A DNA stretch of 64,000 nucleotides, taken from IMG/VR virus record IMGVR_UViG_3300024520_000063, positions 1 through 64,000 of that record, one strand, 5' to 3'. The position numbers and the translations under genes were made by a program. The notes beneath the pieces were generated by a model. It saw only the letters and a program-made list of their open reading frames with translations, searched no databases and was not told the origin of the DNA. The DNA is from a virus. The number at the start of each line of letters is the position of its first letter. Within the stretch, counting starts at the first letter, position 1. Positions 5,424 to 32,460 of the stretch are shown piece after piece.

Positions 5424-5426
5424 AGA

Positions 5427-5813: not shown

Positions 5814-5834
5814 GTTTCTCTCTCCTTGAGATTA

Positions 5835-6284: not shown

Positions 6285-6904
6285 TAGTTGATATTCCCCC
6301 TAAAGAGAAGTCTGCGGACAATCCACTCTGTCTCTTCGAAGACCGCGTCGTCGATACCTTTGCGAGCCGGAATCTCAAACGACTTACTTGTGAGGATGTA
6401 GTGAAGCTCGCTTTCGTTTTCGCCAGTTCCGAGAAAGATCCCAAATGGAGCACTGTACTTCTTCCCGCCCCCATCCTTCTGGTTCATCCTTCGTATGATT
6501 CGAACCCCAGGAAAACTCCGAGCCGAGTTACCGTCACTAGACCACTGCTTGGCAGCCCAGCTGTATGGAATTGCCAGGTATTTTCCATTCTTCGGACTGA
6601 TTCGCCTCACATTTGAAACTAGCTTTTCCCGAGCCGCAAATGGCCCGGTCGTAGAGATTCTGATCGCAAAGGGGTTAATTCTTTTGACTTGAACAGACTC
6701 TCTCAGGTGTCCCTGGACTCGGGTGGGATGCTCTCCGCCCACGCTGTAGCGCGTCCGAGCAGATTTGCTCCACTTCTTTCGAATGCGGTGTTGCAGTCCC
6801 TTCCGGATTTCCTCGATCCGACTCTTGAGCACATTCTCCAACCTGAGCGAAAACTCTCCGCCCGTGTTTTTGATTGTGACAGTTTGTCGGCCTCTCTTAG
6901 CCAT
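6284..6904 (-). CDS. hypothetical virion protein
   Basis: ORF 6284..6955; likely start at internal Met (MAKRGRQ). Confidence 0.45.
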   Translation of the reverse strand: MAKRGRQTVTIKNTGGEFSLRLENVLKSRIEEIRKGLQHRIRKKWSKSARTRYSVGGEHPTRVQGHLRESVQVKRINPFAIRISTTGPFAAREKLVSNVRRISPKNGKYLAIPYSWAAKQWSSDGNSARSFPGVRIIRRMNQKDGGGKKYSAPFGIFLGTGENESELHYILTSKSFEIPARKGIDDAVFEETEWIVRRLLFRGNIN

Positions 6905-7229
6905 CGATTCTCCCAGAGCGTATCTCAAGATCCTTATCAGCCAGAGTGTCCTCAAGGGACTCTCGGATTGTCAGATACTCATCAGTCCCGTCAGTGACAT
7001 ACTGATCGTTCCGGCCACAGTGGACCAGAAGCTCATAAACGTCGTCTCCAGTCACGAAGGTGCTGCTCAGATAGACGTCTGTGGACGTCTCGTCGATCGC
7101 TTCCAGTAATCCAATCCTGACGACCCCGCCCAAGACAAGGCTTTTTCCATCAGGGGGGTCGTTGATTCGGTCCAGTTCGTCAATGAATTCTTCCGTGCTG
7201 TTGAATGAGATGTTCATCGTTTGATCCAT
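6897..7229 (-). CDS. hypothetical head-tail joining protein
   Basis: 110-aa ORF, operon context. Confidence 0.45.
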   Translation of the reverse strand: MDQTMNISFNSTEEFIDELDRINDPPDGKSLVLGGVVRIGLLEAIDETSTDVYLSSTFVTGDDVYELLVHCGRNDQYVTDGTDEYLTIRESLEDTLADKDLEIRSGRIDG

Positions 7230-7624
7230 AAAGCGGCGATTCCCAGCCTCTCCCGGTGCTCTACACTGAGCTTTTTTGGGTTGTAGGCTGCGAGATATTT
7301 TTCTGCTTTTTCGAACTCTGTCTTGTCCTTGATTCTGATTAACGCTCCTTTCGGAGATAGATGCATCTCCCTTAGAACCTTCTCTTCCAGAACAGGAAGG
7401 CTTCCCAGTTCTGGGATCTGGTCTGGGATCTCAGATGCCGATTGTGGAAGTTCGTCATCCCGAACCTTTGGAAACTCGTCACCAGTAATTGTTGGAGCAA
7501 CAGGCTTCTTCAGTTTCTTAGCGCCCGAGTCGGCGCTCAGTTCCAGTTTTCCTTCTCCTGAACCACTGTTCTCCAGATGCTGTTTCTTCCTGCCATGTCG
7601 AACGACGGATTTTTTACGCGGCAT
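7214..7624 (-). CDS. hypothetical protein, basic N-terminus
   Basis: 136-aa ORF; overlaps next ORF by 88 nt so start uncertain. Confidence 0.4.
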   Translation of the reverse strand: MPRKKSVVRHGRKKQHLENSGSGEGKLELSADSGAKKLKKPVAPTITGDEFPKVRDDELPQSASEIPDQIPELGSLPVLEEKVLREMHLSPKGALIRIKDKTEFEKAEKYLAAYNPKKLSVEHRERLGIAALWIKR

Positions 7625-7905
7625 GTTCTTGCGATTCCTGTGTTATCAGTCCAAGTGACTCGGTCTTCGGTCTGAAGCTGAGGATCAGATGCGGTATACA
7701 TACACCATGCAATTGCAGTTTCCCGAATTCCATATTCAATTCGCTCATCGGCTGTTGCGGTCTGCATATCAGCCTGGACAGTCGTAGGTAAGGCACCTCG
7801 ATTTCCAGTGCTCCACGCTAACGAGACTCCGCCATGAGCGTCTGTCGTGTCGGCTTCCCTCTCCATTGTGATGGCAAACCGATCGCACATACTGGAGATG
7901 CTCAT
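7537..7905 (-). CDS. hypothetical head-tail connector protein
   Basis: 122-aa ORF, 4-nt overlap with upstream gene. Confidence 0.45.
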   Translation of the reverse strand: MSISSMCDRFAITMEREADTTDAHGGVSLAWSTGNRGALPTTVQADMQTATADERIEYGIRETAIAWCMYTASDPQLQTEDRVTWTDNTGIARTCRVKNPSFDMAGRNSIWRTVVQEKENWN

Positions 7906-8591
7906 ATGAACTCCCCGTAGTAAACAATCGGATCGAGATTAGCCATGGTTCTTCCCAGGAGCCCGCTTGGTGCGTTCCACTCTGCCTGCATTGTGGATGT
8001 GTCCGCGTACTTCACTGTGTAGTCCTTGAGTCTCTCCATTGTGACTGGCCCAGCCCCAGCCGTGACATTCTGCTGCTGTTTTGCGAAGTTGTACCTGGCC
8101 AATGTCTCGTTAAAGACAGCCTCTCGCACAAAGTGAAATTCATCGTCCAGCTGGGTTGATGTGAACCCGGCAAGATAGACCACTTTGACTGTACGAGGAC
8201 TGATCGGCCAGTTCTTCTGGTATCGTCTCAAGATGCCCGCATGGCTCAGTGTACTGATTTCGGTGTCTAACCAGAAATCTGTATCTATGGTCAGTGCTGT
8301 ATCTGAGTCGAAATCCGCTGCGTTCTGTCCACCGCGAGAGTTGTAATCCTCGTGAACAGTGGTCACAGAGGCGACGAACGGCTCCGGCAATTGAAGCTCG
8401 TTACTGTCCTGTCTCCAGCGTGGCAGGATGTGAGTATGCGTGGCCCGAGTAATTGTCCAGCGGACGTACTGGCGGATCTGAGCCTCAACACGCAGCCTGA
8501 TAGCATCAAGCATCGCAGTGTCAGCGGCAGCCAAAGCTGTTCCGAGCTGCAACTCTATGTTTGCCGTTGTGGCAATGTCTGTCAGTGCCAT
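7902..8591 (-). CDS. hypothetical virion protein (head-tail adaptor size class)
   Basis: 229-aa ORF in structural operon. Confidence 0.5.
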   Translation of the reverse strand: MALTDIATTANIELQLGTALAAADTAMLDAIRLRVEAQIRQYVRWTITRATHTHILPRWRQDSNELQLPEPFVASVTTVHEDYNSRGGQNAADFDSDTALTIDTDFWLDTEISTLSHAGILRRYQKNWPISPRTVKVVYLAGFTSTQLDDEFHFVREAVFNETLARYNFAKQQQNVTAGAGPVTMERLKDYTVKYADTSTMQAEWNAPSGLLGRTMANLDPIVYYGEFI

Positions 8592-8686
8592 TGTGCGTTA
8601 CCCAAAGAAAAGAGGCGAGGACCGCAATTCGATCCTCGCCTTTATAGGCTTGCCTATGCGGCAGTCTGGACTCTCAGATTACTGGC

Positions 8687-9091
8687 TTACCAGGAAGTCT
8701 TCCGCGACATCAGAGTGATGCCAACCAGAAAACTCGGGCTGGTTCCGGCGATCGTCAGGACAGCTCGCACGTATCGCTCTTTGCGATTATGGAACTGAGC
8801 CGTGAAGACCGTGTTGTCATCCGTGCCTGTGATCTGTGTCAGGGTGGCACCTGTAATGTCCGCCCAGGCGTCAGCAGCTTCAGGATCAGCCGAGTTTTCG
8901 TTTCGGCTTTCCTGCAGCTTAATGTCCAGAGTCGGGCTGGTTCCAGTTGCAGCACCCAAATTGACGATCACGAAGACGTCTGGACCGCAGTCCTGACAGT
9001 CGTGTGAGCTGCTGTTTGCAGTCGCCGTGGTTGCAGCAGGATCCAGAACCTGCGTGGTATTGAAGTAATTAACCATATCAATCGAACTCAT
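8687..9091 (-). CDS. hypothetical virion protein
   Basis: 134-aa ORF downstream of capsid gene. Confidence 0.45.
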   Translation of the reverse strand: MSSIDMVNYFNTTQVLDPAATTATANSSSHDCQDCGPDVFVIVNLGAATGTSPTLDIKLQESRNENSADPEAADAWADITGATLTQITGTDDNTVFTAQFHNRKERYVRAVLTIAGTSPSFLVGITLMSRKTSW

Positions 9092-9106
9092 CTCGGTTCT
9101 CCTCGA

Positions 9107-9589
9107 TTACTTCCCAGAGCGGGAAGAGGGTTTTTGGCTTTCCGCGACAATCCCTCGGACGATTGATTCGATCAAGTGAACGGAAACCATTCCATTCGTG
9201 ATCGCATTCTGGTGCCTCTTGGGAACTTTGTCAGTCTTCCTGACATCAAGGACGAGAAACTGATAGTCAACCTGACCCAGCTGTTCTCGTGCCTTGTATT
9301 TCTTAAGCCACTCGTTGTGCGTGGACAAAAGGCCGTTCACGATTGTCCCCGTGAAGGACTCCGATGGAGTCACAACATTGGGCTGATGAACGTGTTCGAA
9401 ATCACCATTCCCCAGAGCAACAACCTTCCGCTTTCTGCCCTGGTACATCCGATCTTCAGGCGACCAGCTCGAATGCTGACCCAGTTGAAGTGTGACTTCG
9501 TAAAAGCCGCTCTCTTCGCTCTCAGGCAGAAACTCGTGTGGCTTGACTTGCTCCGCACTAAGGGCTTCGATTTTCTCTGCAACAGCCAT
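9107..9589 (-). CDS. hypothetical virion protein
   Basis: 160-aa ORF downstream of capsid gene. Confidence 0.45.
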   Translation of the reverse strand: MAVAEKIEALSAEQVKPHEFLPESEESGFYEVTLQLGQHSSWSPEDRMYQGRKRKVVALGNGDFEHVHQPNVVTPSESFTGTIVNGLLSTHNEWLKKYKAREQLGQVDYQFLVLDVRKTDKVPKRHQNAITNGMVSVHLIESIVRGIVAESQKPSSRSGK

Positions 9590-9656
9590 TCTTGACTCCG
9601 GTTTTGAGGGTGGAACACAGGGCGGATCAGGTCCGATCCGCCCCTAGTCCTTATTT

Positions 9657-11081
9657 TTAGCCATTCACCAGCTGGTCGATAAGACCAAAACTGTTTTCGT
9701 GGCGAGGAACCGCATCGATGTAGTGCGTACCACGCATCGTGAAGATGCCAGAAGCAAAGTTGCTTCCATGGCTGTCCGTGACCTTAACCTCCATCATCGG
9801 AGACCGGCCAATGAACAACTCAGAGGGGACGCCACCCAGAACGTAAGTCAGGTCCGTGCCTGAACTCTTCGCTCGGATGTTGTTAACCTGCGTACCGGTG
9901 AACACTGGGTGTCCGCCGATCGATTCCCGAACTCCGCCGTCGCCATAAGCGAGAGCAGCAGCACGGAACTTCGGCTGACCCTGGGAATCTTCGCGATACT
10001 TCAGGGCTGCCCAGATCAGATTCCGCATCGTGAGGAACGTGCCCGTGCCGACAGGAGCGTTGTTGTCCGCGATCTTCGCGAGCAGCAACTCAGGATCCTT
10101 GGGCTCAAGCGTGTCGCCATTGGCACCAGTTGTGCTGGCGGTATGGGTCTGGATTCCGGAGTACCGGATCAGGCCCTGGATGTATGCTCCACCCGGACCA
10201 TCACAAATGTCCTGATCGACGTTCAGGGCGATGTCCTTGGTGATTTCATCTCGAACAAAAGCGTCTGCAGACACGGTCGTCGAGAATCGCATGAACTCTT
10301 CGGTCATCTCAACCAGGCCGTTGTACTTTTTGGCCTGCAGCAAGACGTCCGCAGTTGTCGGAGTACTTTCACTCACAGCTTCCGATTCCGCGTGAGCCGT
10401 AATCGTGACAGCGCCGGTCACTTTCGGGTAGCGAATCTGGCCCTGTTGCGGCATCGGGACTTCCCGAACGCCCGGAATCCGACCCCAGAGGGAGCTGGCT
10501 CGCAGGAATTCAATCAGTTCACCCTGCTGCGGGAAATCAACAAACGTCCCACCAGTCGTGGCGGTACGATATGTCAAATCCTTGCTCAGTCGCTTGGACA
10601 GCCAGGCCGCTTCATCCGGGTCGAAACTGCCCAGATTCGTGTTCATCTGACGCCACTCTTTGGTCAGCTCGGAGCCATCCTGCTCCATATAAGCTGAGCC
10701 GATCGGAACCATGAAGGCACCGCCGACCGTCTGGCCTTTGCTCTTGGATTCCTTGGCCAGCTTCTGGCAGAAGTCCATTTCGAGCTTGCAGTCTTCAGTA
10801 TACTCCTGCTTCGTGGCGTGAAGGACAAGTCCCTTGGCCAGGCGGGAGAAGCTGAATGCTCGGCTCGTGTTGACAGATTCGCCAACCGACATCCCTGGAG
10901 CACCTTGCATCCACGGAGCCTGTGCTTTCGAGTGCTCATCGACGGTCTTCGCAAGCGACTCCACATTGGCAGTCATCTTCTCGAAGCCATCAGCCAGATC
11001 TTCGATGCTCTTCGCGATGAACTCAGCAGGATCAGTCGCGCTTTCTTCGGTCGCATTGGCAGCGGTATTGGTGTCAGCCAT
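9657..11081 (-). CDS. major capsid protein (HK97-fold class inferred)
   Basis: approx 475-aa ORF directly after an acidic scaffold-like gene and followed by small head completion genes; size and position typical of MCP; start probably MADTNTAAN. Confidence 0.65.
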   Translation of the reverse strand: MADTNTAANATEESATDPAEFIAKSIEDLADGFEKMTANVESLAKTVDEHSKAQAPWMQGAPGMSVGESVNTSRAFSFSRLAKGLVLHATKQEYTEDCKLEMDFCQKLAKESKSKGQTVGGAFMVPIGSAYMEQDGSELTKEWRQMNTNLGSFDPDEAAWLSKRLSKDLTYRTATTGGTFVDFPQQGELIEFLRASSLWGRIPGVREVPMPQQGQIRYPKVTGAVTITAHAESEAVSESTPTTADVLLQAKKYNGLVEMTEEFMRFSTTVSADAFVRDEITKDIALNVDQDICDGPGGAYIQGLIRYSGIQTHTASTTGANGDTLEPKDPELLLAKIADNNAPVGTGTFLTMRNLIWAALKYREDSQGQPKFRAAALAYGDGGVRESIGGHPVFTGTQVNNIRAKSSGTDLTYVLGGVPSELFIGRSPMMEVKVTDSHGSNFASGIFTMRGTHYIDAVPRHENSFGLIDQLVNG

Positions 11082-11098
11082 GACAGTTTCTCTCCAGT

Positions 11099-11790
11099 TT
11101 AGGTGTCCTGGCCGCACGCGCGGGCCATAGAGCAGTTGATTTCGTCCAGTCGTTCCGCCAGACCAGACATCGAAGATGTGACCGTAGTCAGACTCTTAAC
11201 AACCTCAGTTGTTGAGTCCGCCTTACGGAGCTTCTTGCGTTCCCGCATAATTTCGACTGCTTTTGCAAGCGGGTCGATCTTCTTCTCTTCCGTCTTCGTC
11301 TCAACATCGTCGTTTTTAACGATGGTATCCGAGGTCTCGTCATCCCCATCCTTGGGTTCAGTCGCAGGCTCTTCCTGCTTGACGAGACTTTTGATCTCTT
11401 CGAAGCTCTTCTCGATTTCTTCCTTCTCGACCTTCATGGTGGACGCAACAATGTTGACTGCGCTTTCCAAGTCGGACATTCTCTCGCCGAGCTTGTCCAT
11501 TGTGGTTCTCAGTCGAATTCCAACCTCAGGCTCGGCGTCTTCATCCCAGTCAGAATGATGGATATCAATTCCGACATGCTCTTTGAGAAGTTCAATCAAC
11601 GGCTGAGCCTGGTCAGCAGTCAGGCCTTCGATGCTCTTCAGGATCTCGACAGCCTGGCTGATTTCATCCATGGACGTGTCCTCTTTTGTCAGTACAACAA
11701 AATCCGAACCTGGCACAGCGCCTTTTCGGACGAGGCTGACCTCTCCGATTGAGACATCGCTCAGGCGTCGTCGTTTGTTTGTTTCAGACA
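11099..11790 (-). CDS. scaffolding protein (acidic coiled-coil)
   Basis: highly acidic E/D/K-rich alpha-helical sequence immediately upstream of capsid gene; start at MSETNKRRR. Confidence 0.5.
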
Positions 11791-12437: not shown

Positions 12438-13181
12438 ATGAGTGAAAGGTTAGATTCGGTCGCAATCAAGTTCCGCGTATCGAACGAACTGTCAGTCCTG
12501 CTTCAGGACGCTGCTGGAAACAGACACCTTGATAAGGCAGAAATGATAAGGCAGGTACTGGCCTCGTGGCTAGGTCGTCCCGATACAGCACAGCTCACAA
12601 ACTCACTGAATATTACGTCTCGAAAGGCTATGGCCAGGGTAGATATCGGGTTAGAGAAACTCAGGCAGGGTATGAAATCTGGCTGGAAAGATCTGTCTTC
12701 CGGAATTATTGATCTTCTGAACTGTGGCTATGTCCGGATGGCGGACAGATACTGGAGATTCGCCAACAACCTCAACTTGAAGAGTCGGCATCTTGAGGGT
12801 ACTAAACCTCTTGCCGACATGAAGCTCATGATTAAAGAGCGAGCGCTCTATCTGGAGGAGAGCCTGTTCCCCCAATGGATCTCAGGCGAACCAAGGACTG
12901 TTGGACTCTTCGTGATCAACAGAAAGCTCAAGAAGGGAACTCGCGAGGAGCTTCTTCGTGTGAAGTCTCCCCACGATCTCCCGCTGCTTGACGACAAAAT
13001 ACTGGCCCATCACCGAGTTCCGGTTACTCCGAAAATCAGTTCGCGTTATTCAGGGCCATTCGACCAACCTGAACTGGCTTTGCCTGAGGCTGAGCAGATC
13101 CATTCTGGTCAGGTTTCTCCGGGGTTTTGCCTGCAGGATCCTGCCCTGGCTCAATCGGAATCCCAGTGTTCGGGTCAATGA
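12438..13181 (+). CDS. hypothetical protein, possible RHH-like N-terminus
   Basis: 247-aa plus-strand ORF filling gap in minus-strand head module, overlaps portal 3' end; N-terminus KAEMIRQVLASWL resembles ribbon-helix-helix. Confidence 0.3.
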   Translation: MSERLDSVAIKFRVSNELSVLLQDAAGNRHLDKAEMIRQVLASWLGRPDTAQLTNSLNITSRKAMARVDIGLEKLRQGMKSGWKDLSSGIIDLLNCGYVRMADRYWRFANNLNLKSRHLEGTKPLADMKLMIKERALYLEESLFPQWISGEPRTVGLFVINRKLKKGTREELLRVKSPHDLPLLDDKILAHHRVPVTPKISSRYSGPFDQPELALPEAEQIHSGQVSPGFCLQDPALAQSESQCSGQ

Positions 13182-14466
13182 CCTGGAAGCCAGAGATCAT
13201 GACTGGCCGGTCGCCCAGCTCGCCACCGAACGGCTTCAGGTTCATAAGAAGCTCACGAACCTCGTCCGGAGTGATGGCACCGCACTTCAGGCAAGTCAGA
13301 ATGTTATCTCTCAAGCTTTGCTGAGAGTCGACATTGCAAGGCCCCAGTTTAATGAACAGGTTGCCAGGGAAGTCCGAGGCAAGCTTCTGGGTCAGATGCT
13401 GGGAAATGTGCTCAAGGATCGGATCCACAGTCATCTTGCAGAACTGAGTGAGCGACCCTTCCATTGAGGCACTGGTCATTCCCTCTCCGAGGCCGACCAC
13501 AGACTTAGGAACACCATGAGTGGCCAAAGTGATAGACAGTGTTCTGTCCAGGCTGGAAGAGTAATCCAGTTCCTTCACGCTTCCGGAGTTGTATTGCCCG
13601 GAAAGCTTCAGGCCCGAGTGTGAGATCATCGGAGCACCCGTCTGATCCGCCATGCTGTGCTGGGCGAACAAATTGGCCCAGAGCTGGTGGACCTGATGTG
13701 GCTGGAGCCGATTCGTGCACTCGAAAACCATGCCTGGCGCGGCAAAATTCTTGAACTGGTAGTACAGACGCCTGTGCATCTCATCTTCCAGGTCAATAGT
13801 CGTTGCAGCCGCCTTAATCGAGGGAGTTCCGTAGTATCGGCCAGAATCACTCCAGTCCAGGCTGGGATTCTTGATATGGATCATCCACTCTGGCGGAACG
13901 ACGAAGTTTTCGCCCACGGCTCCAGAGTCGATCTGGTAACCGCCGACCATCTCTGTCTCACCCGACAGGACTTTCACCCACTGAGTCGGCATTGGCCAGA
14001 TTTCTCTGGGGATTCCAAACCCGTTGCGAGCCTTGTAGAGGAAAGAGTCGCCCGTCAGGAGTCTCCACCCAACCATGTAAAACCAGAGGTCCCATTCGGT
14101 ATCTACCGGGTTCACATCGCGGAGAAGCTCGACCAGCGGGTGCGTTGGGGAGACTTCTTCGGTCTTCCATGTGCCCTTCTGCTTGAATTTGCGGAAAACC
14201 TTGGCCTTTTGCATTGCGGCCATCCGAGCAATTGCTCCAATGGCGATATAGGTTGAGCCCTTGTACTGCTGGGCGTACTTGTTCCGATCTTCAACCCAGC
14301 GAGCGGGAGTTCCTGACTGGCCCAGTCGATTAGCCATTACCGGGAACTGCTGCTCAGCCGGAAACGTACGGATGTCTCGACCACGAGTCGGACCTTGAGA
14401 GAATTCAACCTCTCGGAACGAACTACCAGCGTTCTGAAGAATCGATTCCAGGTTCGTCAGGGCCAT
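13036..14466 (-). CDS. portal protein
   Basis: 476-aa ORF at head-module start with WDLWFYMVGW and other portal-like blocks; size typical. Confidence 0.7.
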   Translation of the reverse strand: MALTNLESILQNAGSSFREVEFSQGPTRGRDIRTFPAEQQFPVMANRLGQSGTPARWVEDRNKYAQQYKGSTYIAIGAIARMAAMQKAKVFRKFKQKGTWKTEEVSPTHPLVELLRDVNPVDTEWDLWFYMVGWRLLTGDSFLYKARNGFGIPREIWPMPTQWVKVLSGETEMVGGYQIDSGAVGENFVVPPEWMIHIKNPSLDWSDSGRYYGTPSIKAAATTIDLEDEMHRRLYYQFKNFAAPGMVFECTNRLQPHQVHQLWANLFAQHSMADQTGAPMISHSGLKLSGQYNSGSVKELDYSSSLDRTLSITLATHGVPKSVVGLGEGMTSASMEGSLTQFCKMTVDPILEHISQHLTQKLASDFPGNLFIKLGPCNVDSQQSLRDNILTCLKCGAITPDEVRELLMNLKPFGGELGDRPVMISGFQVIDPNTGIPIEPGQDPAGKTPEKPDQNGSAQPQAKPVQVGRMALNNAN

Positions 14467-15327: not shown

Positions 15328-16245
15328 ATGACCGACCTCAAATCGATCCCAGAGGGGAAGATTGAGACAGTTGAGATTTCCCTCTTGCGGAACAACCCGC
15401 TCAATGAGGAAATCTACGGCACCGAGGATGTCGACCCTGATCTTTTAAGGTCGATTCAAGATCACGGTGTCGATACGCCGATTGAAGTTCTTCCGGACGG
15501 AACTATCATCAAGGGCCACCGCAGAAAGCTGCACGCAGAAGAGGCTGGGCTTACAGAGGTCCCAGTTATTGTCCGCCACGAGCTGAACTCTCCGGAAGAG
15601 GTTGGCTTCGCTCTGATCGAAGACAATCGCCACCAGAGAAACAGGACGAATATACAGAAGGTGCGTGAAATCATGTACCTGACAGGGATGCTCCAGACCC
15701 AGAACAGAATCCGCAAGGCTACGGGGCTTCCTGTTTATGAGGCTGATGCCCATACGGACGAAGAACTTATGGAGCTTTCCGGGATGAGCCGGGAGAGCTA
15801 CGAGCAGGTTGCCAGTCTCACCGAAAGCTATGCAGCCAGGTTTGGATCGTCAGCATCTCCCCAGGATGTGGCCTGTGATCACATCGGAGTCAGCAAAAAG
15901 ACGTTCATGCAGGGACAGAATGCCCTAAAGACAGCAGAGGCCTGGCGGAGTGCTGGAAACGACAAAAAGGCCGACCAGATCGAAGAGGCTCTCCATAAGG
16001 GTATCTCAACTGGATATCAGGTCGCCAAGAAGATCGGTCAGCCCGGCAAGAGGAGTGAGAAGAAAGTAATCAAGGCTAAGGCCAGCATAGAGTCGGTCAT
16101 TCTCACTCTTAAGAGTATGACGGCGGCACTTCACAAGGCTCGCGTCGCCATTCCAGAATCACTGCGTGATCAGCTCGACACCATCATCAATAAAATCAAT
16201 AGCATGAGGGAAGAACTTGAAAAGTCCGAACTCGACAATACTTGA
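15328..16245 (+). CDS. ParB-like nuclease domain protein
   Basis: N-terminal ParB/Sulfiredoxin-type block (DTPIEVLPDGTIIKGHRRKLHAEEAGLTEVPVIVRHE). Confidence 0.65.
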   Translation: MTDLKSIPEGKIETVEISLLRNNPLNEEIYGTEDVDPDLLRSIQDHGVDTPIEVLPDGTIIKGHRRKLHAEEAGLTEVPVIVRHELNSPEEVGFALIEDNRHQRNRTNIQKVREIMYLTGMLQTQNRIRKATGLPVYEADAHTDEELMELSGMSRESYEQVASLTESYAARFGSSASPQDVACDHIGVSKKTFMQGQNALKTAEAWRSAGNDKKADQIEEALHKGISTGYQVAKKIGQPGKRSEKKVIKAKASIESVILTLKSMTAALHKARVAIPESLRDQLDTIINKINSMREELEKSELDNT

Positions 16246-18496
16246 GGGCGACAGCCTGCAAGTACTCAAAGGCCTGCCTGATAACTCATTCCAGTGCTCC
16301 GTAAGCTCGCCTCCTTACTGGAATTTGCGCAACTATCAAGTCGATGGACAGATAGGGCTTGAGCCAACCGCACGCGAATTCATCCAGAATCTCGTATCTG
16401 TTTACTCAGAACTAAAGAGGGTTCTCCATCCGTCTGGTATTGCCTGGATTAACATAGGCGACAACTACGCCGGTGGAGGAAACAAGCGAGGCAAGGGTAG
16501 TCCGATATCCAGCAAACAGTCCAGTAATGCCGGATGCACTGGCCAGCTTGCGGATGTGCCAATAGTAGAAGATCTTCCACGGAAGAACATGAATGGAATG
16601 CCATGGAGATTTGCCTTTGCAATGCAGGATGACGGCTGGGTCCTCCGAGATGCGATAATTTGGCAGAAAAAGAATCCGATGCCTACGAGCCAAAAAGATA
16701 GATGTACGAACTGTTACGAGTACATCTTTCAGTTCACGAAGGGTCCAAAGTACTTCTTTGATATGGAGTCTGTGAGAGAGCCTGCCAGATATGGAGCTGG
16801 GGAGAACTTTCGGAGTTCGTCATATCTCAATGATAAGTCTCACAACAACAGCCAAGACCGGTCAGGATCGACCGAAGGAGGGATTCCGGGCAAGGGTGGA
16901 ACGCGAGTGCCTAGGAACATCAGAAGCTGGGCAACCCAAGGCTATAAAGGTGCTCACTTTGCTTGTGTTGACGAGGAAACCCAGTGCTTGACCAAAGAAG
17001 GATGGAAGTCTCAAGATCAAATTAAGCCGGGTGATGTCGCCGCCCAGTACAACATGGAGAGCGGCCTCTTGTCCTGGGCTGAAGTTGAAGACGTAGCGAG
17101 ATACGATGTTTCTGACCAAGACATGGTTTCTGCCGAATGCCGTGACTTGTCAATGCTTTTGACTCCTAACCACAGAACGATAATCTCCAGAAGAAGATCG
17201 AGAGGAAAAGGCCATCACCCTCCGACCATAATCGAAGCTGAGAATCTTAGTGATGGCCACAGAATACCAGTCTCTGCCGACTGGGATGATGGCGATCATG
17301 ATCAAACCATGGGAGGGGTAGAGTGGGCAGAACTGATAGGATGGTACGTTGCGGAAGGGTACGAAAACAAGAAATCGTGGTCTGTGGATATATATCAAAG
17401 CAGATCAGCAAATCCGGAAAAGGTCGAGAGGATTCGGCATCTTCTGGATTACGTGGATGCCGAGTACGAAGAGACTCAATCTGAGAGGAAATACAAAAAT
17501 CGCACATGCAGCATGTCTTCATTCAGAATAACTGGTCACGCGGCCATAAAAATAAGAAGCATGGTCCCAGGGAAAAGGCTTTCTTGGTCTTATATGGGGC
17601 TGTCAGCAGAAGAGATGAGGGCTCTTGTTGCTGGACTTATTGCTGGAGATGGACACATTCGGCCAGATGATGGCCGGGTGTGCTTTATCCAGAAGTCGGA
17701 CCACTGTATCGACTTGGTTCAAGCAATGGCTGTTAGGCTGGGATATGCTGTAAAGATCACAAAATCCCCTTCAACATGGAGAATGTACCTGACTGAAAAA
17801 AGATACATTTCTCTTCGTGGTACGAATGGAAGTGGCAGGAATATATCAACAAAGAAATATTCCGGAGTTGTGTGGTGTCCAAAACTACCCCATGGAACCT
17901 GGGTTGCTAGGAGGAATGGACGAGCATTCATAACTGGGAATACTTTTCCAATTTCGCTCCCTCTATGGTGTATTACGGCCAGTGCTCCGAAAGCAGGCGT
18001 CTGTGCTAAATGCTTCACGCCATACAAGCGAGTAGTCGAAAGCATCCGCAGGGCGACCCGTCCGGGAGAAAACACCAAGATCAAGATGCCGGACGGATGG
18101 GACACAGGAGAGGGCGGGCACGGCAGTTTTCATCGGGAAGGCAGAGAGAAAGGCCAGTACCGTGACACAGCAGAGATTGGAAACAGAGATCCGCAACGTC
18201 ACGTCACAGAAACAACCACCGTTGGGTGGGAACCTGGATGCACTTGCGATTGCGGAACTGATTTCCCAGCAATTCTGGATCCCTTCTCAGGGGTCGCCAC
18301 TACAGGACTGGCCTGTTCGCGCCTCCGATGCCACTACGTGGGAATCGAACTTAATCCAGAGTATGCACAGATGTCGCGGGACAGAATCAAGGACGATCTG
18401 ATCAAGGGATTCGATCCGAACCCACATGCCGTGAACCTTAATCTGGGAACTGGTATCGACTTATGTCAGGAAAACGTGTCACAATTTAATTACTAA
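16217..18496 (+). CDS. beta-class amino-DNA methyltransferase (N6A/N4C), intein-containing
   Basis: motif IV SPPYWNLRNY near N-terminus and motif I DPFSGVATTG near C-terminus (beta-class order); central insertion with intein/LAGLIDADG blocks. Confidence 0.75.
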   Translation: MKSPNSTILEGDSLQVLKGLPDNSFQCSVSSPPYWNLRNYQVDGQIGLEPTAREFIQNLVSVYSELKRVLHPSGIAWINIGDNYAGGGNKRGKGSPISSKQSSNAGCTGQLADVPIVEDLPRKNMNGMPWRFAFAMQDDGWVLRDAIIWQKKNPMPTSQKDRCTNCYEYIFQFTKGPKYFFDMESVREPARYGAGENFRSSSYLNDKSHNNSQDRSGSTEGGIPGKGGTRVPRNIRSWATQGYKGAHFACVDEETQCLTKEGWKSQDQIKPGDVAAQYNMESGLLSWAEVEDVARYDVSDQDMVSAECRDLSMLLTPNHRTIISRRRSRGKGHHPPTIIEAENLSDGHRIPVSADWDDGDHDQTMGGVEWAELIGWYVAEGYENKKSWSVDIYQSRSANPEKVERIRHLLDYVDAEYEETQSERKYKNRTCSMSSFRITGHAAIKIRSMVPGKRLSWSYMGLSAEEMRALVAGLIAGDGHIRPDDGRVCFIQKSDHCIDLVQAMAVRLGYAVKITKSPSTWRMYLTEKRYISLRGTNGSGRNISTKKYSGVVWCPKLPHGTWVARRNGRAFITGNTFPISLPLWCITASAPKAGVCAKCFTPYKRVVESIRRATRPGENTKIKMPDGWDTGEGGHGSFHREGREKGQYRDTAEIGNRDPQRHVTETTTVGWEPGCTCDCGTDFPAILDPFSGVATTGLACSRLRCHYVGIELNPEYAQMSRDRIKDDLIKGFDPNPHAVNLNLGTGIDLCQENVSQFNY
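16985..17941 (+). mobile_element. intein with LAGLIDADG homing-endonuclease domain inside the methyltransferase gene
   Basis: starts Cys (CLTKEGW), contains LIGWYVAEGY and LVAGLIAGDGHI (two LAGLIDADG blocks), ends ...ITGN followed by Thr; splicing would restore HFATFP, matching HPAVFP of the paralogous MTase at 26922. Confidence 0.65.
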
Positions 18497-25291: not shown

Positions 25292-25726
25292 CTTTCGGAC
25301 AGCAGACTTGAGCAATTTGTCGATTTTGTCCTGATTTCCCTTCAATTCGTCGTAATTATGGCTCAAAACGACTGTTTTTACCCCTAATTGAGCCACATCT
25401 GATACTGTTTCTTCCAGATCGAAGGTCTCTACGAGTGCTTTTTCTATGTCTGATACCTCGTAAACCACTGTTACAGACACAGTTACAGTCCTGCCATCGT
25501 CCGTGGTCAATACCTGAGGCGACAGATCAAGCGTCTGTCTCTTGATGGGATATCGAACTGGCTCCGACCAGATGGGCCAGTAGATATGCATTCCGGGCTC
25601 CAGAACCTTAGTTTTTCCTCTCTTGAAGAGTACACAGCCCAGATTGAACTGAACATGCAGCAATCTGGGCAAAACAAGGCCCATATTGTGGATAATGCTG
25701 GAAATCCAGCCAAATGCACCTTCCAT
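25208..25726 (-). CDS. SPFH/band-7 domain protein
   Basis: LTTDDGRTVTVSVTVVYEVSDIEKALVETFDLEE... pattern typical of SPFH (HflC/stomatin-like) domain. Confidence 0.5.
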   Translation of the reverse strand: MEGAFGWISSIIHNMGLVLPRLLHVQFNLGCVLFKRGKTKVLEPGMHIYWPIWSEPVRYPIKRQTLDLSPQVLTTDDGRTVTVSVTVVYEVSDIEKALVETFDLEETVSDVAQLGVKTVVLSHNYDELKGNQDKIDKLLKSAVRKSLHPHGAKVIEAFMSDFAPCFVFRNIC

Positions 25727-25928
25727 AGTGATCTCCTTTCAGGAGCCAGAATATCAGGCCCAAGAGTAACGAGAATCACAGATAATGTCCCTGCCTGTAT
25801 CTGGGAAGGACTCACATTACGAACGACCGAATTCAGCAGGCGGCGAAAAAAGATATCCCTAAGTAGCTCGGCGTAGTTTCGCCGCTCTGCTGCAATGCCT
25901 TGTTGGGTTGCCTTCCTGGTTTACATGG

Positions 25929-26324
25929 CTACTTCCTATGAAGATATTTAAGCACTTTCTTGGCCGCTTTTTGAACTTCTGTGGGATCGTCGCAGACAAT
26001 TCCGCCATGGCCATCTTCGTGACAGGGTGCCTGGGCTTCTGCCTGGTAGTATTTCTTTATGGCATGCCGGAATGCCCTGCATGCCAAAGTGCCCATTCTT
26101 TCGCTGATTCGATCGATAGCGGCGTCAGATGGTCCGAGTCCGATAGGATTGTGGCTTCTAATAATGGCCTGGAAGGTCGCCCGCAGGGGATCGGCGAGTT
26201 CATTGAATTCGTTGCGCCTGTCACGAACGACCGAGAATTTATGGTCGATAAAGGCCCCAGCCAAAGCGCCCACAACAAGCGAGCCAGCACTGGTCGCAAT
26301 CAAGTGCAGGATAGTGATTGTCAC
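25929..26324 (-). CDS. hypothetical protein
   Basis: 131-aa minus ORF preferred over overlapping 198-aa plus ORF on sequence plausibility. Confidence 0.3.
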   Translation of the reverse strand: MTITILHLIATSAGSLVVGALAGAFIDHKFSVVRDRRNEFNELADPLRATFQAIIRSHNPIGLGPSDAAIDRISERMGTLACRAFRHAIKKYYQAEAQAPCHEDGHGGIVCDDPTEVQKAAKKVLKYLHRK

Positions 26325-26921
26325 TACTGGTGCCGCCTCGCGATTTTATGTTTATGTTCAGCTTATATTAGCACTGTTGTCAGAACAGAGCTGCGGTTTC
26401 GAAGAGAGCGGATGCATATGCCAGGACTGTCCATGTCGCCGCAACCTAACAACCAAGCTAACGGGGCGGCGACTGGCGATTCGGAAGAACAGAAACAGCC
26501 TTAATCCGCCGCTCGCGTTGGGCGGTTTGTTGGTGAGGACTCGCATGACAATAGAATTTGACACGGTGACGCGCAGCCACTGCCAGCTCGTTCACTGCCA
26601 CTGTGGCGGGTGCGGATTTCCAATCGGCATGGACGGCTCATGTGGTTGTGTAGAATTAAACCACCCCATCGGCCAAATTCAGACAAGCAACCTGAGCATG
26701 GCCCGGCTGGCGTCCAACTATGCCATGATGAGGCTGGCTGATTACGGACATATGGACTCTGTAAGTGCTGTCAGGGCAATTCTGGACGGCGAACCTTTCA
26801 TGACTGGAGTTGCTAGAGGACGAGAAGGTTTATTTCTTTGAGCCTTTGGAAAAGGAAATATCTATTGAGGATATGCAGAAGATTGTGGACGCAAACGAGA
26901 AATTAGTTAAGGAGTTGAAAG

Positions 26922-27671
26922 ATGGAGATAAATAAAATTTACAACGAAAATTGTCTTGATACGATGGCAAAAATGCCTGATTGCTTTGTGGATTTAACGG
27001 TTACTTCACCGCCTTATGATAATTTGAGAGATTACAAAGGGTTTGATTTTGATTGGAAAACTATAATAAAAGAACTTTATAGGGTAACAAAAGAGGGTGG
27101 TGTAGTAGTTTGGGTTGTTGGTGATGCAACAATTAAAGGAAGTGAAACGGGAACATCTTTTAAGCAAGCATTACACGCTATTGATTGTGGTTTTCGTTTG
27201 CACGATACAATGATTTACTCAAAAGCAAGTCAGCCAAGACAAAACGGGCATAGGTATGAACAGCAATTTGAATATATGTTTGTGTTTAGTAAAGGGAAAG
27301 TTAAAATAAAAAACATTATAAAAGAACCATCTAAAAATGCAGGAAAGGTTGTCAAAAGGACTTGTAGAGATAGTGGAAAAGATGAACTAAAAAGTAGTAA
27401 AAATATTGTTTCAGACTTAAAAACAAAAGGGAATGTGTGGTTTTACGGAACTAAAAAAAACGACACAAAACACCCTGCTGTATTTCCTAAACAATTAGCA
27501 AACGACCATATCATAAGTTGGAGCAATGAAAACGATTTAATCTACGACCCATTTTTGGGAAGTGGAACAACGGCTAAAATGGCGTTACTAAACAATCGAA
27601 AATTTGTCGGGAGTGAAATATCAAAAGAGTATTGCGAAATTGCAGAGAAGCGAATCAATGAAAATCTATAA
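26922..27671 (+). CDS. beta-class amino-DNA methyltransferase (orphan), AT-rich codon usage
   Basis: SPPYDNLRDY (motif IV) then DPFLGSGTT (motif I); paralog of 16217 MTase but with strongly AT-biased codons. Confidence 0.8.
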   Translation: MEINKIYNENCLDTMAKMPDCFVDLTVTSPPYDNLRDYKGFDFDWKTIIKELYRVTKEGGVVVWVVGDATIKGSETGTSFKQALHAIDCGFRLHDTMIYSKASQPRQNGHRYEQQFEYMFVFSKGKVKIKNIIKEPSKNAGKVVKRTCRDSGKDELKSSKNIVSDLKTKGNVWFYGTKKNDTKHPAVFPKQLANDHIISWSNENDLIYDPFLGSGTTAKMALLNNRKFVGSEISKEYCEIAEKRINENL

Positions 27672-27930
27672 AATCACAGACGCAAGCGATTATCTTGGAG
27701 TGTCTATAAACACCCTCAAGACGCTTGCCAACAACGGAAAGATAAAATCTTTCAAGACTACTGGTGAGCATAGGCGTTTTCGTCAGGAAGATTTAGACGC
27801 TTATATGGGAGTCGAGAAAGAGAAGAAAGAAAAGCTGACTGTGATTTATGCCCGTTGCTCTACTGCTCGAGAGACCAGCTCTTCCATTTCCATGACTGAC
27901 TGGGTTTGGGCACCTCTGTCAGCGTTCTGA
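27658..27930 (+). pseudogene. truncated IS607-like serine recombinase (MerR-like HTH + start of catalytic domain)
   Basis: HTH (YLGVSINTLKTLANNGKIKSFKTTGEHRRFRQEDL) followed by VIYARCST (cf serine recombinase IYARVS catalytic motif) then divergence and stop. Confidence 0.45.
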
Positions 27931-28459
27931 TTTCGCTCGGGTCCCATATATGGGATGCATCAAACCCTTCGTATTCGTAGTCGTACCATGTGGATTGCGC
28001 CGCCCAAAGTCTGATATTCAGCTTTTTGCGGCGCTCTTCCATTTGCTCGGCGTAGAATTCATCAGCGATATCTTCCAGTAGTTCAGTCCACGCCGGGGAC
28101 TCTCTCATTGCCTCATTCTGGGGGAGCGTCTGCCATACATCCCGGCCCAGCCGGTACTGAGGGTAAGCTCCGAGGCGAGTACTCTGGTAATCGTGCCATC
28201 TGACCCGGAAGAATGACAGAATCCGGAGTCTCCTGGCCTCCAGCTCGCAGCATTTCAGGAGCACGTCAGGATTCAGCCTGTGCTTACGGGGAATCCTGCG
28301 GAACCACGAGATGGACAACTCGCGATACAGGACCATCGAAGAAACATCTCGTTCGTCGACAGCGATATGCAGCTCGCGGCGTCTCTCTGGAACTGGACGG
28401 AACGGTTGCTCGTAGAAAGTCTCAACCGTCATCCACATTGTGAGGCAATAGACAAGCAT
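27860..28459 (-). CDS. hypothetical protein
   Basis: 199-aa ORF. Confidence 0.45.
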   Translation of the reverse strand: MLVYCLTMWMTVETFYEQPFRPVPERRRELHIAVDERDVSSMVLYRELSISWFRRIPRKHRLNPDVLLKCCELEARRLRILSFFRVRWHDYQSTRLGAYPQYRLGRDVWQTLPQNEAMRESPAWTELLEDIADEFYAEQMEERRKKLNIRLWAAQSTWYDYEYEGFDASHIWDPSEIRTLTEVPKPSQSWKWKSWSLEQ

Positions 28460-28494
28460 CCAGATATTATATGCGACACCGGCCAGTCCGAGCG

Positions 28495-28665
28495 CTAATT
28501 CTGGATAGTTTTGTCCATCACTCCGAACGCATCCCTGATCATCTCGATCGTAATATCGTCATTCGAGAGCTTGGCGTTCGCGTAAGCAAACTGAATCGCT
28601 TCCTCCAGAGCCTCTTCTGGGGTAATGCCCCTCATCTCTGCCAATTGCTTAAACAGCTCACTCAT
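28495..28665 (-). CDS. hypothetical small protein
   Basis: start MSELFKQLAEMRG inside ORF 28495..28779. Confidence 0.35.
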   Translation of the reverse strand: MSELFKQLAEMRGITPEEALEEAIQFAYANAKLSNDDITIEMIRDAFGVMDKTIQN

Positions 28666-28879
28666 CAGGGGCCTCCACGGCAGAGAGATCAGAGAGCATT
28701 CCCATCTGCCTGCCCTTGCTGTTAATGAGGGCCGTGTCGGCGCTTGTGAGCTGCACCATGCTGTCGTCAACGACCTCAACAGAGATGAGGTGAGTGTTGA
28801 GGGTGTAGGGATTTCCCATTACGACATCAGCGCCAGCCTTGGCACCCTTAAGGATGTGCATCAGCTCAAATACTTTCAT
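28658..28879 (-). CDS. hypothetical small protein
   Basis: 73-aa ORF. Confidence 0.35.
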   Translation of the reverse strand: MKVFELMHILKGAKAGADVVMGNPYTLNTHLISVEVVDDSMVQLTSADTALINSKGRQMGMLSDLSAVEAPDE

Positions 28880-29106
28880 TTATTGTCCTGTTTGTTTTCA
28901 CTGGCAGTTATGCGGTACTGAGCAATCATCATCTGCACATTAGCCATAGCTAATTCGTGGCCAGTTGTCGTCTCGTGCCTTGATTGCAGAAAACCGGCAA
29001 ACAGACACGCACCTCCGATCGAGGTCGTGACGTACCCAGGATCGAAGAATACCCCGACATGAGTGAGGACTGCCCCGATAAGAAACAGCATCGTGCTCTT
29101 GTTCAT
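28876..29106 (-). CDS. membrane protein
   Basis: 76 aa, two TM helices. Confidence 0.45.
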   Translation of the reverse strand: MNKSTMLFLIGAVLTHVGVFFDPGYVTTSIGGACLFAGFLQSRHETTTGHELAMANVQMMIAQYRITASENKQDNK

Positions 29107-29384
29107 GCCATATCCTTTTCATGGAGTCGGTCAAACAACTCTTGTCCGCGAGCCTTGATTTTAGCGATCACAGCATCAGTCCACTCTGGCCATGTCTCAG
29201 GCCGGGCGTTCCATCTATTGATAGCGGCTTCCCTGGATTCCCATTTCCCCTGCAGCGCGCAACCGCATTCGCATTGTATCAGGCACGCCGACATCACGGC
29301 AGGAACGTAGTATTCACTGTCTGCGTCGAGAACCTCAACCTGGTCATTGCCGCAGAACGGGCACGGGAGCATTTCATTCATCTT
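29103..29384 (-). CDS. Lar-family restriction alleviation protein homolog (second copy)
   Basis: MKKMNEMLPCPFCGNDQVEV...CECGCALQG...AAINRWNARP matches Lar family pattern. Confidence 0.55.
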   Translation of the reverse strand, partial: KMNEMLPCPFCGNDQVEVLDADSEYYVPAVMSACLIQCECGCALQGKWESREAAINRWNARPETWPEWTDAVIAKIKARGQELFDRLHEKDMA

Positions 29385-29586
29385 CTTCATCCTGATTAAC
29401 CATCGCAGCGCGAGCGTCACGGACGCTGTTCAGTTGCTGCATACTCTCTCTCATCTGTTCCAGAAGATGCACCTGAGAGACCAGCGCACCAATGTGCTGC
29501 TGACGGGATTTGATCTCAAGTTCGATGTCGGCCAGTGTCGTTTCGCTCATCTCATCTCTCCTTGAAAAGTGGTCATGTAACAACAT
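29374..29586 (-). CDS. coiled-coil small protein
   Basis: 70 aa. Confidence 0.4.
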   Translation of the reverse strand: MLLHDHFSRRDEMSETTLADIELEIKSRQQHIGALVSQVHLLEQMRESMQQLNSVRDARAAMVNQDEEDE

Positions 29587-31465: not shown

Positions 31466-32007
31466 ATCAGCTCTCCTTTTTCCCGACGTCAGGAAGATGG
31501 CCTATTTGTTGCCCTCAACAAAATGGTCCGCCCTTAACTACTCCCCCGCCGTCATTCCCACGTGCGAGACCATCACACAACAGATGCAGCGAAGTGTATC
31601 AGGCGATTACCACGGGTGCAACCACGGGGTTCAGATCGAGGAAAACCCGGTCAGGATCAGGGCAGCGAAGCTCTCTTTCCGGGTGTAGAGAACACTCAGT
31701 ATGAGCATGTGCGACACGTGCATAGAGGTGGTGCATCAAAGTGCTCCATGAACCGGATTGAGGGAAAAATGAGGACTGATGTCTGAGGCATCAATACCTG
31801 CCTGGCGGGCATGAGAGCGCACTATTGTTCACCCCCGCCTATGTCAATCTGCGCCTATGTTAAGGTCACCTACAGGCACATGCTGAGTGTTCACACAGAG
31901 ATCGTCTGCGAAGTCTACGCGGCGTCACGTACCGTTCACGCGATACGTTGACGTGATGGCAGATTCACGCAGGGTAGCTGCTGGCATGAGCGTGTGGTCG
32001 GATCTAT

Positions 32008-32046
32008 CTCGTCTTCATCTTCGTCTTCGTCTTCGTCTTCGTCTTC
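32008..32046. repeat. (TCTTCG)n hexanucleotide microsatellite, about 6 units
   Basis: direct reading: tcgtcttcatcttcgtcttcgtcttcgtcttcgtcttc. Confidence 0.9.
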
Positions 32047-32460
32047 TAGTTCTTCGCTCGCGGCCTCTGCGTTCATCTCCTGCGTCTGCCGAGTCTGGCC
32101 AGCGTATCGGTCAACTCGGCAATGACGGCCCACGTGGAGCATCTGAGCGACTAACAGCAAGCGCTGGCGGTATTTCGGATAAACTTAGATAATTAGTACA
32201 GATTAGACCCTTGACCGATAATCGATTCCGGAATCCATCAAAGAACAATCCAAACGACCACAACGAAATTTAGCCATATCATGACAGATTCAGGGATCTG
32301 TACGTGTTTATATAAACTAAGTGTCCTATAAAATTTGAAGTTTATTCTCGTTTATTCGCGTCCAGATTATCGGCTGAATTCACGATCCTGGATTTCCCTA
32401 TCTTTGTACCGAATACTTGGATCCTTCGATTCTCAATTCTCACAACACAAGGAGACCAAC

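Follow-up and report, generated by a model that had tools for sequence, protein, structure and literature searches.

Phages rely on DNA modification against host restriction, and their acquisition of DNA methyltransferases (MTases) has mostly been inferred from mosaic genomes. Insertion sequences (IS) that carry passenger genes are termed transporter IS in ISfinder usage. Members of the IS607 family (IS607 of Helicobacter pylori, IS1535, ISC1926/ISC1904) encode a transposase, TnpA, with an N-terminal MerR-like helix-turn-helix (HTH) domain and a C-terminal serine recombinase domain; they have no terminal inverted repeats, carry short direct repeats near the left end, possess GG termini and insert at GG without target duplication (PMC6188088, the source of all family features used here for comparison). 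Members usually also carry tnpB, placed downstream of tnpA, although this gene is not required for transposition, for which tnpA alone suffices (PMC6188088). Here we analyzed an AT-rich islet at positions 26815–27866 of a 64-kb viral sequence (IMG/VR record IMGVR_UViG_3300024520_000063, positions 1–64,000; this whole stretch is called the window below). The islet is very probably an immobilised, doubly truncated remnant of a phage-borne, tnpB-less IS607-family transposon, with an MTase gene kept as a likely anti-restriction gene.

The family of elements behind the islet shares with IS607 the domain order of its transposase, the lack of terminal inverted repeats, the short direct repeats near the left end, the GG termini and the insertion at GG without target duplication. 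Unlike IS607 elements, it lacks tnpB, and its tnpA comes last in the gene order instead of first, behind a leader open reading frame (ORF) of 52 amino acids (aa) and a cargo slot. Instead of the plain (G)GG target of the family, it lands in Shine-Dalgarno-like AGGAGG or AAGGA sequences before genes, and it is carried by phage genomes. No transposase in deposited phage genomes is more than 37% identical to its TnpA. Like a transporter IS, it is a minimal transposon that brings along one gene, or a few, with no role in its own transposition; unlike a transporter IS, it has a fixed slot, whose exact limits are the ATG of the cargo and that of tnpA, with an apparent translational coupling to tnpA and with cargo devoted almost entirely to DNA modification. 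The MTase of the islet resembles phage orphan MTases (Dam, Dcm-type) in being solitary, with no partner endonuclease, and in its presumed role in self-protection from host restriction-modification. It differs from them in that the acquisition route, a dedicated transposon, is visible here; its function is predicted from sequence. Free-standing homing-endonuclease genes are likewise small selfish DNA between phage genes, and HNH genes occupy the same position in relatives of the window phage, but mobility of the element depends on a serine transposase acting at GG and not on double-strand-break homing. In the literature searched, coverage of which was incomplete, neither the clade nor its cargo slot or target preference was found to have been described. 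The remnant in the window is itself ordinary; the transposon family behind it is apparently undescribed.

Composition and parts of the islet

The GC content of the window is about 0.52 overall and steady across the 64 kb outside the islet. At the islet it steps from 0.55 (26500–26799) to 0.32–0.35 (26800–27599), and is back at 0.54 by 27900. The block 26815–27866 has a GC content of 0.357 (z = −7.9 relative to the other 1050-nt segments; mean 0.521, SD 0.021, minimum 0.45), and is the lowest-GC kilobase in the window. GC content at third codon positions is 0.264 in the islet MTase gene, 0.60–0.65 in neighbouring and structural genes, and 0.50 in an intein-containing MTase gene elsewhere in the window. 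An earlier note on this DNA had proposed a GC drop at about 26830–27930; the drop is real, and the composition of the window is not uniform. The low-GC donors that the note had suggested looking for come down to the composition of the element itself, with a GC content of 0.32–0.40 in any carrier phage (flank GC range 0.305–0.60). For the window alone, this provides a clean explanation of the compositional anomaly.

We placed the edges of the islet at 26814/26815 and 27866/27867 by homology to other copies of the element (a slash marks a junction here and below). In about 70 other loci the homology always starts at 26815 and stops at 27851–27867. Past 27866–27867 there is no homology to any element copy, and GC content is at background. 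The parts of the remnant are as follows.

26815–27866, plus strand: entire remnant, derived from the interior of an IS607-family cargo transposon; it corresponds to positions 5149–6210 of locus L017, where the element spans 5010–6626
26815–26935, plus strand: 3' part of the small ORF (pseudogene), about 39 codons and the stop; the start codon and the first ~13 codons are missing
26908–26913, plus strand: AAGGAG ribosome-binding site of the cargo gene, within the 3' end of the small ORF, 8 nt ahead of the MTase ATG
26922–27671, plus strand: cargo MTase gene, intact, 249 aa, beta-class N6-adenine/N4-cytosine; overlaps each neighbour by 14 nt
27658–27866, plus strand: tnpA pseudogene, codons 1–70 of 205; retains the MerR-like HTH, the linker and beta-1, which carries the catalytic-serine motif YARCST
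27867–27930, plus strand: read-through tail, 20 codons and a stop; host DNA antisense to gene 27860–28459, outside the element

Positions 26815–27867 align with the L017 element in a single colinear blastn alignment of 1070 nt (element positions 140–1201), and blastn with the L017 element found positions 1–139 and 1202 to the end nowhere in the entire window. Missing from the window copy are thus about 139 bp at the start of the element, which include the left end and its four AAATC repeats, as well as the first ~13 codons of the small ORF, tnpA codons 71–205 and the right end. Because both ends and two thirds of tnpA are lost, it can neither encode a transposase nor be mobilised in trans; a complete element has an intact transposase and both ends, and the window copy is therefore a remnant and not a functional IS607 member.

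The 3' gene fragment that the earlier note had seen at the start of the islet is present and ends ...EKLVKELKDGDK with its stop codon at 26935. It is 92% identical to residues 17–52 of the 52-aa ORF of L017 (tblastn), and the stretch 26815–26935 shares 85–96% nucleotide identity with other elements. Position 26815 was considered as the true left end of the element and ruled out, since intact copies reach 139 bp further left. Also ruled out was a recombinase gene split by integration and rebuilt by joining the islet ends, as the left fragment is a separate 52-aa ORF in full-length copies. Elements whose cargo genes are unrelated still share the sequence GTTAAGGAGTTGAAAGATG as far as the cargo ATG, and the window has it unaltered.

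The MTase is complete, as the note had stated. It covers the full PF01555 profile (6e-46, positions 1–221 of 221), matches phrog_67 at 4e-59, and has the motif order of the beta class, with motif IV (SPPY, residues 29–32) ahead of motif I (DPFLGSGTT, residues 209–217). Its nearest solved relatives comprise both N4-cytosine and N6-adenine enzymes, MboIIA and CcrM among them (E 1e-15 to 1e-11), and its scores on the NCBIfam CcrM and YhdJ models are far under the cut-offs. The ratio of nonsynonymous to synonymous substitution rates (dN/dS) is 0.12–0.24 in comparisons with relatives, and the MTase family is under purifying selection. Cargo of the same type occupies the same position in L012, L017, L041 and L054. 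The islet MTase had been described as a paralog of the intein-containing MTase at 16217–18496. The two indeed belong to one Pfam family, but the wording overstated their kinship: they are only 22% identical over 184 residues, plus 35% over 43 residues (BLASTP), and the islet MTase is, judging by this comparison, not a recent paralogue.

The HTH ORF (27658–27930) matches HTH_17 (3.5e-12) and MerR_1 and contains VIYARCST. Its transposase part aligns with positions 2–67 of 187 in the IS607-transposase model NF033518 (41 bits, cut-off 110) and with positions 2–69 of 201 in the phrog_6620 transposase; it is 93–97% identical in amino-acid sequence to the N-termini of full-length 205-aa copies, and its homology to L017 breaks after ...TCAACTGCT. 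An IS607-like recombinase truncated after about 90 aa had been proposed; both the identity and the truncation stand, but only residues 1–70 are transposase, the last 20 being read-through. The broader proposal, the scar of a small mobile element that delivered a second MTase, is borne out, as the three pieces are colinear with an IS607-type element and the MTase sits in its cargo slot. We conclude that the MTase is built-in cargo of the element and not an accompanying gene, and that the element is truncated on the left as well as on the right.

The intact transposon: ends, target sites and cargo

When residues 1–70 of the HTH ORF served as a protein query, many matches of 80–97% identity came back, all short and with differing tails. 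Among the 120 matches listed all were of 122 aa or less; many end at contig ends and the 205-aa proteins were missed, probably through the prefilter of the search, so that the list is no census. A DNA search of viral contigs, using the 121-residue N-terminus from the protein matches as a query, gave 123 loci, 80 of which were fetched. The element is present in an additional 20 loci (L095–L114) from metagenome-assembled genomes.

Intact elements are 1.3–2.5 kb long and have all their parts on one strand, in the order left end, ORF of ~52 aa, cargo slot, tnpA (205 aa) and right end. In L017 the element is a discrete block (5010 to 6626–6628), outside of which nothing is common to other loci among the 80 viral ones and the flanks are unrelated; it contains a ~100-bp left end, the 52-aa ORF MKVIKVTKEYFQTEDEKVYFFEPLEKEISVEDMQKIVDANEKLVKEIKDGSK, a 252-aa PF01555 MTase and the 205-aa TnpA, followed by 8–10 nt. 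The small ORF, beginning MKVIKVTKEYFQTEDEKVYFFEPLEKEISVEDMQKIVDANEKLVKE..., was recovered complete from 62 fetched loci. Four AAATC motifs with an exact 10-bp spacing (offsets 22, 32, 42 and 52) mark the left end; a scan of this end gave no support for a sigma-70 promoter. The right end reads ...TTTAAAAAGG. There are no terminal inverted repeats, as the consensus sequences of the two ends share just trivial A/T-rich 6–7-mers in inverted orientation.

The 205-aa TnpA scores 188.4 bits on the NF033518 IS607-transposase equivalog (cut-off 110), covering positions 2–186 of 187. Pfam places HTH_17 at residues 4–50 and Resolvase at 62–194, i.e., an N-terminal HTH and a C-terminal serine recombinase. 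The best match of known structure is the catalytic domain of ISC1926 TnpA (6dgc, 4e-31); TnpA domains of MJ0014, ISC1904 and IS1535 match too. No tnpB was found inside the element, and homology among copies stops 8–10 nt past the tnpA stop. The missing gene is compatible with IS607 membership because tnpA alone suffices for transposition in this family (PMC6188088).

The borders of the element are highly regular. On the left, ...AGG/TTnTAACTGC was found in 56 of 56 distinct junctions; on the right, the border is ...TTTAAAAAGG/A, with GG/A in 70 of 71 distinct junctions and GG itself invariant at all 71. AGGAGG is present at both borders in 29 of the 46 elements for which both ends are available. 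Two pairs of occupied and empty sites were recovered. The empty site L115 reads ...CCAA AGGAGG ATTT ATG, and in the occupied site L028, from the same sample, a 1.4-kb element has AGGAGG on either side. The second pair was predicted: from the junctions of L062 (left border ...CATAGAAGG/AGGTTGTAAC; right border ...TTTAAAAAGG/ACCTAAGTAATG, i.e., ...AAAAAGG/ACCTAAG) the sequence of the empty site was deduced ahead of the search, and it was found as predicted, ...CATAGA A GG ACCTA AGTA ATG, in five contigs (L124–L128) whose flanks are 99.1–99.2% identical to those of L062 over 1.1 and 5.7 kb. These two pairs show exchange at one GG with no target duplication, the signature of IS607 (PMC6188088). 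Empty sites for L043, L022, L074 and L012 were searched for and none were found.

In both pairs, the target GG belongs to a Shine-Dalgarno-like sequence, AGGAGG or AAGGA, a few nucleotides ahead of a phage gene, and the element lies in the orientation of that gene. At 29 of 72 loci the host ORF begins 7–10 nt past the right-end GG. We conclude that the right end, AAAAAGG, rebuilds the ribosome-binding site of the downstream gene. A 9-bp target, AGGAGGAGG, was ruled out, since the empty sites hold a single hexamer or AAGGA. Judged by its transposase architecture, GG termini and target, lack of duplication and of inverted repeats, and left-end repeats, the element belongs to the IS607 family.

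The cargo slot between the small ORF and tnpA measures 440–1610 bp, and its genes are always on the strand of the element. A census of the cargo covered 58 non-redundant elements. In 44 of them the slot holds a DNA methyltransferase or Mom: MT-A70 MTases were found in 12, PF01555 N6/N4 MTases in 11 plus one divergent case, C5-cytosine MTases in 9, phrog_757 MTases in 5, D12 Dam in 3, Mom in 2 and PF05869 Dam in 1. Another 7 elements carry a PAPS-reductase-like protein, and 7 have unknown small ORFs only. A NUMOD3/HNH-type endonuclease is additionally carried by three of the 58; none of them has a restriction endonuclease gene beside the cargo, and none has an empty slot.

When elements with different cargo are compared, homology ends exactly at the cargo ATG and resumes exactly at the tnpA ATG (cassette bounds: 5256–6014 in L017, with equivalents in L009–L088; 26905–26924 and 27655–27672 in the window). 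The cargo ATG is preceded by a conserved GTTAAGGAGTTGAAAG, located inside the small ORF. The cargo stop overlaps the tnpA start (ATGA or ATGAAAATCTATAA), and there is no conserved ribosome-binding site ahead of tnpA. Together, these two features suggest that translation of tnpA may be coupled to that of whatever cargo is present.

It is an even bet that the remnant comes from an undescribed, highly mobile, phage-specialised IS607-type clade, which lands in Shine-Dalgarno sequences and carries a single swappable start-to-start cassette drawn from at least eight unrelated DNA-modification families. If so, the clade would be a dedicated "methylase shuttle", giving phages of very different GC content, and presumably of different hosts, fast access to new anti-restriction specificities. 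Landing in Shine-Dalgarno sequences would let the elements slip between genes and leave operons unbroken, and given this preference for ribosome-binding sites, insertion should be nearly harmless to a tightly packed phage genome. Decayed copies would be domesticated end-products, and the HTH fragments retained in them might inhibit further insertion. A vehicle for MTase acquisition becomes visible here as a compact serine transposon, in at least 123 viral contigs, with a slot that holds many unrelated DNA-modification enzymes. Were this confirmed, it would help to explain how anti-restriction genes can turn over rapidly in phage populations, and would supply a natural example of an IS607-type enzyme whose target preference is short, defined and useful. 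For annotation, it would mean that short "excisionase-like" HTH ORFs beside orphan MTases in viral contigs are often transposase stumps.

Origin of the remnant

Under the explanation we favor, intact elements insert by exchange at the GG of a Shine-Dalgarno-like sequence, rebuilding the ribosome-binding site of the gene. In the window phage, both ends and two thirds of tnpA are gone, and the MTase gene is left with its own ribosome-binding site. Transcription of this gene would come from read-through of the phage gene upstream, and its product would methylate phage DNA and so shield the phage from host restriction. This protective benefit may be why the MTase survived while the rest of the element decayed. 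Since the MTase and its ribosome-binding site are intact in an otherwise decayed element, retention for anti-restriction is the most likely reading. The window copy is thus best read as a putative domesticated cargo gene, the small-ORF and tnpA stumps being debris. The islet lies between two phage genes, both of which have lost their native 3' ends and now finish in islet sequence.

26545–26841, plus strand: left flanking phage gene, 98 aa, Cys-rich; the junction 26814/26815 is inside the ORF, and the islet supplies the last ~8 codons and the stop
27860–28459, minus strand: right flanking phage gene, of 199 aa here but called with 190 aa elsewhere; the last two codons and the stop (27860–27866) come from the islet

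Read-through into the MTase gene probably comes from the left flanking gene, and a scan found no terminator-like site between the two. A decayed tnpA in the left flank (as in the L118 fusion described below) was ruled out, as shuffled sequences reach its nucleotide score in 9% and its protein score in 93% of cases. P0241, P0242 and P0243 match the right flanking gene at 100%, 66% and 54% identity, and homologues extend 9–27 residues further at the C-terminus; a search of IMG/VR found no relatives of this gene. The position of the islet is a convergent gene junction. In relatives (L089–L094) the place that corresponds to 26840–27860 of the window is occupied by other genes: an unrelated one of 100 aa and two distinct endonucleases of the HNH type (L090 2255–2626 and L094 707–1048). 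We conclude that it is a plastic, hypervariable landing spot. The earlier note had proposed that related phages without the islet would define the insertion boundaries. Such relatives exist, but the nearest share only 54–66% protein identity and have other genes at this place; they provide no exact empty site, and the edges were set by homology among element copies instead.

Several observations weigh against our explanation. Neither window junction is at a clear GG exchange site, and the right one (...ACTGCT/CGAGAG) is without any GG; hence the truncations do not reflect normal transposase chemistry. The original insertion site and the order of decay cannot be reconstructed, because the collections hold no islet-free relative closer than those just mentioned. 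While the transposition module of the window copy has 90–94% nucleotide identity with other copies, its MTase gene is 86–87% identical to MTase genes of element-free low-GC phage contigs (L004–L008), compared with 75% for element-borne ones. The window MTase being closer to element-free than to element-borne genes, the MTase cassettes have a mosaic history of their own. The known copies of the islet are all 100% identical and so are silent on selection since truncation. Lastly, the activity, expression and specificity of the MTase are predictions.

The lack of a GG signature at either junction would also be expected if the piece had been imported already truncated, through illegitimate or microhomology-mediated recombination with a co-infecting element-carrying phage, and had never transposed here. 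The hypervariability of the convergent junction in relatives, where HNH endonucleases and unrelated genes are found, and the loss of native 3' ends from both flanking genes are in line with such an import. So are recombination events seen in other copies: L118 has recombined within the element at purine-rich microhomology, at the same small-ORF breakpoint, and L016 and L018 have the same right flank with different cargo and left flanks. We regard this as a serious possibility, if a rather less probable one. Insertion in place followed by two deletions fits the data equally well, and the import is a variant of the explanation we favor that leaves the identity of the piece the same. A separate question is whether the 90-aa HTH ORF has been kept as a stand-alone DNA-binding protein, for example a truncated transposase that would inhibit incoming elements by binding their AAATC repeats, or a small regulator. 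Its HTH domain is whole and in frame with a start codon, codons 1–70 have a dN/dS of 0.05–0.10 relative to intact copies, and N-terminal fragments with varied tails are numerous in metagenomes. Recent truncation predicts an equally low dN/dS, though, and the abundance of such fragments cannot be read from the list of protein matches, in which many short entries are cut at contig ends and the full-length proteins are missing. As the 20-residue tail is accidental antisense sequence, too, we consider a function of the stump unlikely.

Two further explanations do away with the transposon altogether. Taken alone, the HTH ORF matches excisionase/MerR-type models (TIGR01764, 1e-10; HTH_17), and it could be read as a complete, unrelated regulator, with the MTase an ordinary phage moron or a restriction-modification remnant. 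The note had itself singled out this reading of the ORF as the one that would overturn its proposal. It is contradicted by the 93–97% identity of residues 1–70, catalytic-serine strand included, to the N-termini of 205-aa IS607 transposases, by the abrupt homology break at 27866, and by the gene order and overlapping stop and start codons, which match those of the element; a restriction-modification remnant is further at odds with the absence of restriction endonuclease genes from the cargo census. This reading is very improbable. The same can be said of an assembly chimera, in which reads of a low-GC organism would have been built into a phage contig. A multi-copy repeat in these communities can mislead assemblers, and many element-bearing contigs end inside or beside the element, but the islet and both its junctions are reproduced with 100% identity, over 1.8–2.5 kb, in three other contigs from different samples (L001–L003), with two pipelines, ENA and JGI, represented. 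The islet protein is on record in 8 contigs, four of them 50–200 kb in length. With the same junctions at full identity in three other assemblies, we conclude that the islet is not chimeric and is fixed in this phage population.

Carriers, rearranged copies and further features of the window

The flanks of the element encode terminase, portal/adaptor, DNA polymerase and DnaB proteins. When the region 25500–29500 of the window was compared with deposited phage genomes, a near-identity search gave no match and a distant search gave generic methyltransferase similarity only. TnpA copies 86–95% identical (L095–L114) are present in metagenome-assembled genomes assigned to more than 10 phyla, including Thermoplasmatota and Nanoarchaeota; in genome collections the element was seen in metagenome-assembled genomes only, and in no isolate genome. 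The multi-phylum assignment may reflect a very broad host range of the carrier phages, or phage contigs that were binned wrongly.

Other copies of the element are decayed or rearranged as well. P0160 is a decayed copy that has kept its MT-A70 cargo, while its tnpA stops at ...VIY. In L116 and L117 (3001–3950), tnpA is broken after residue ~95 by a 132-aa TnpB-like fragment (HTH_OrfB_IS605 and Cas12f1-like_TNB), with a resolvase fragment of 52 aa behind it; the copy seems to have a second element nested within it. L118 (2200–4300; also L119 and L120) contains a C5 MTase, a D12 MTase, a fusion of the tnpA N-terminus to the small ORF, a partial N6/N4 MTase (135 aa) and a resolvase-only ORF of 128 aa. 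The fusion joins the small ORF from ...EKVYFFEP onwards, at a 13-nt purine-rich microhomology. As the fusion point coincides with the left-edge position in the window, the purine tract of the small ORF is a possible recombination hot spot.

L016 and L018 have the right flank and the right end in common, carry cargo of 535 and 1611 bp, respectively, and differ in their left flanks. Here the element appears to act as a portable homology block for recombination between phages. Two divergent copies (L085 and L086), whose TnpA is 76% identical to the query, are located on one contig of 58.6 kb (IMGVR_UViG_3300010429_001276), near its opposite ends, with tnpA about 3.6 kb and 1.3 kb from the ends. 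In P0239 (85 aa), the HTH N-terminus of the transposase is joined to an apparent tyrosine-recombinase C-terminus (...ELLGHKDVSTTMIYTHV...). In L057, a split MTase with an HNH insert (6720–9986), similar to the intein-containing MTase of the window, lies directly downstream of an element copy.

The window as a whole is a phage-like genome, with a major head protein at 9657–11117, a portal protein at 13036–14466 and the intein-containing MTase at 16217–18496. The latter is a 759-aa PF01555 MTase, in which an insert of ~430 residues, the intein, splits the N- and C-terminal halves. A second, smaller AT-rich dip, with a GC content of about 0.41, was observed at 32180–32460. It is non-coding and located where transcription switches from the minus to the plus strand; it is probably regulatory and not foreign DNA. 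Close to it, at 32010–32050, a simple repeat, (GTCTTC)n, corresponds to an alternating Glu/Asp run in the minus-strand ORF 31936–32160.

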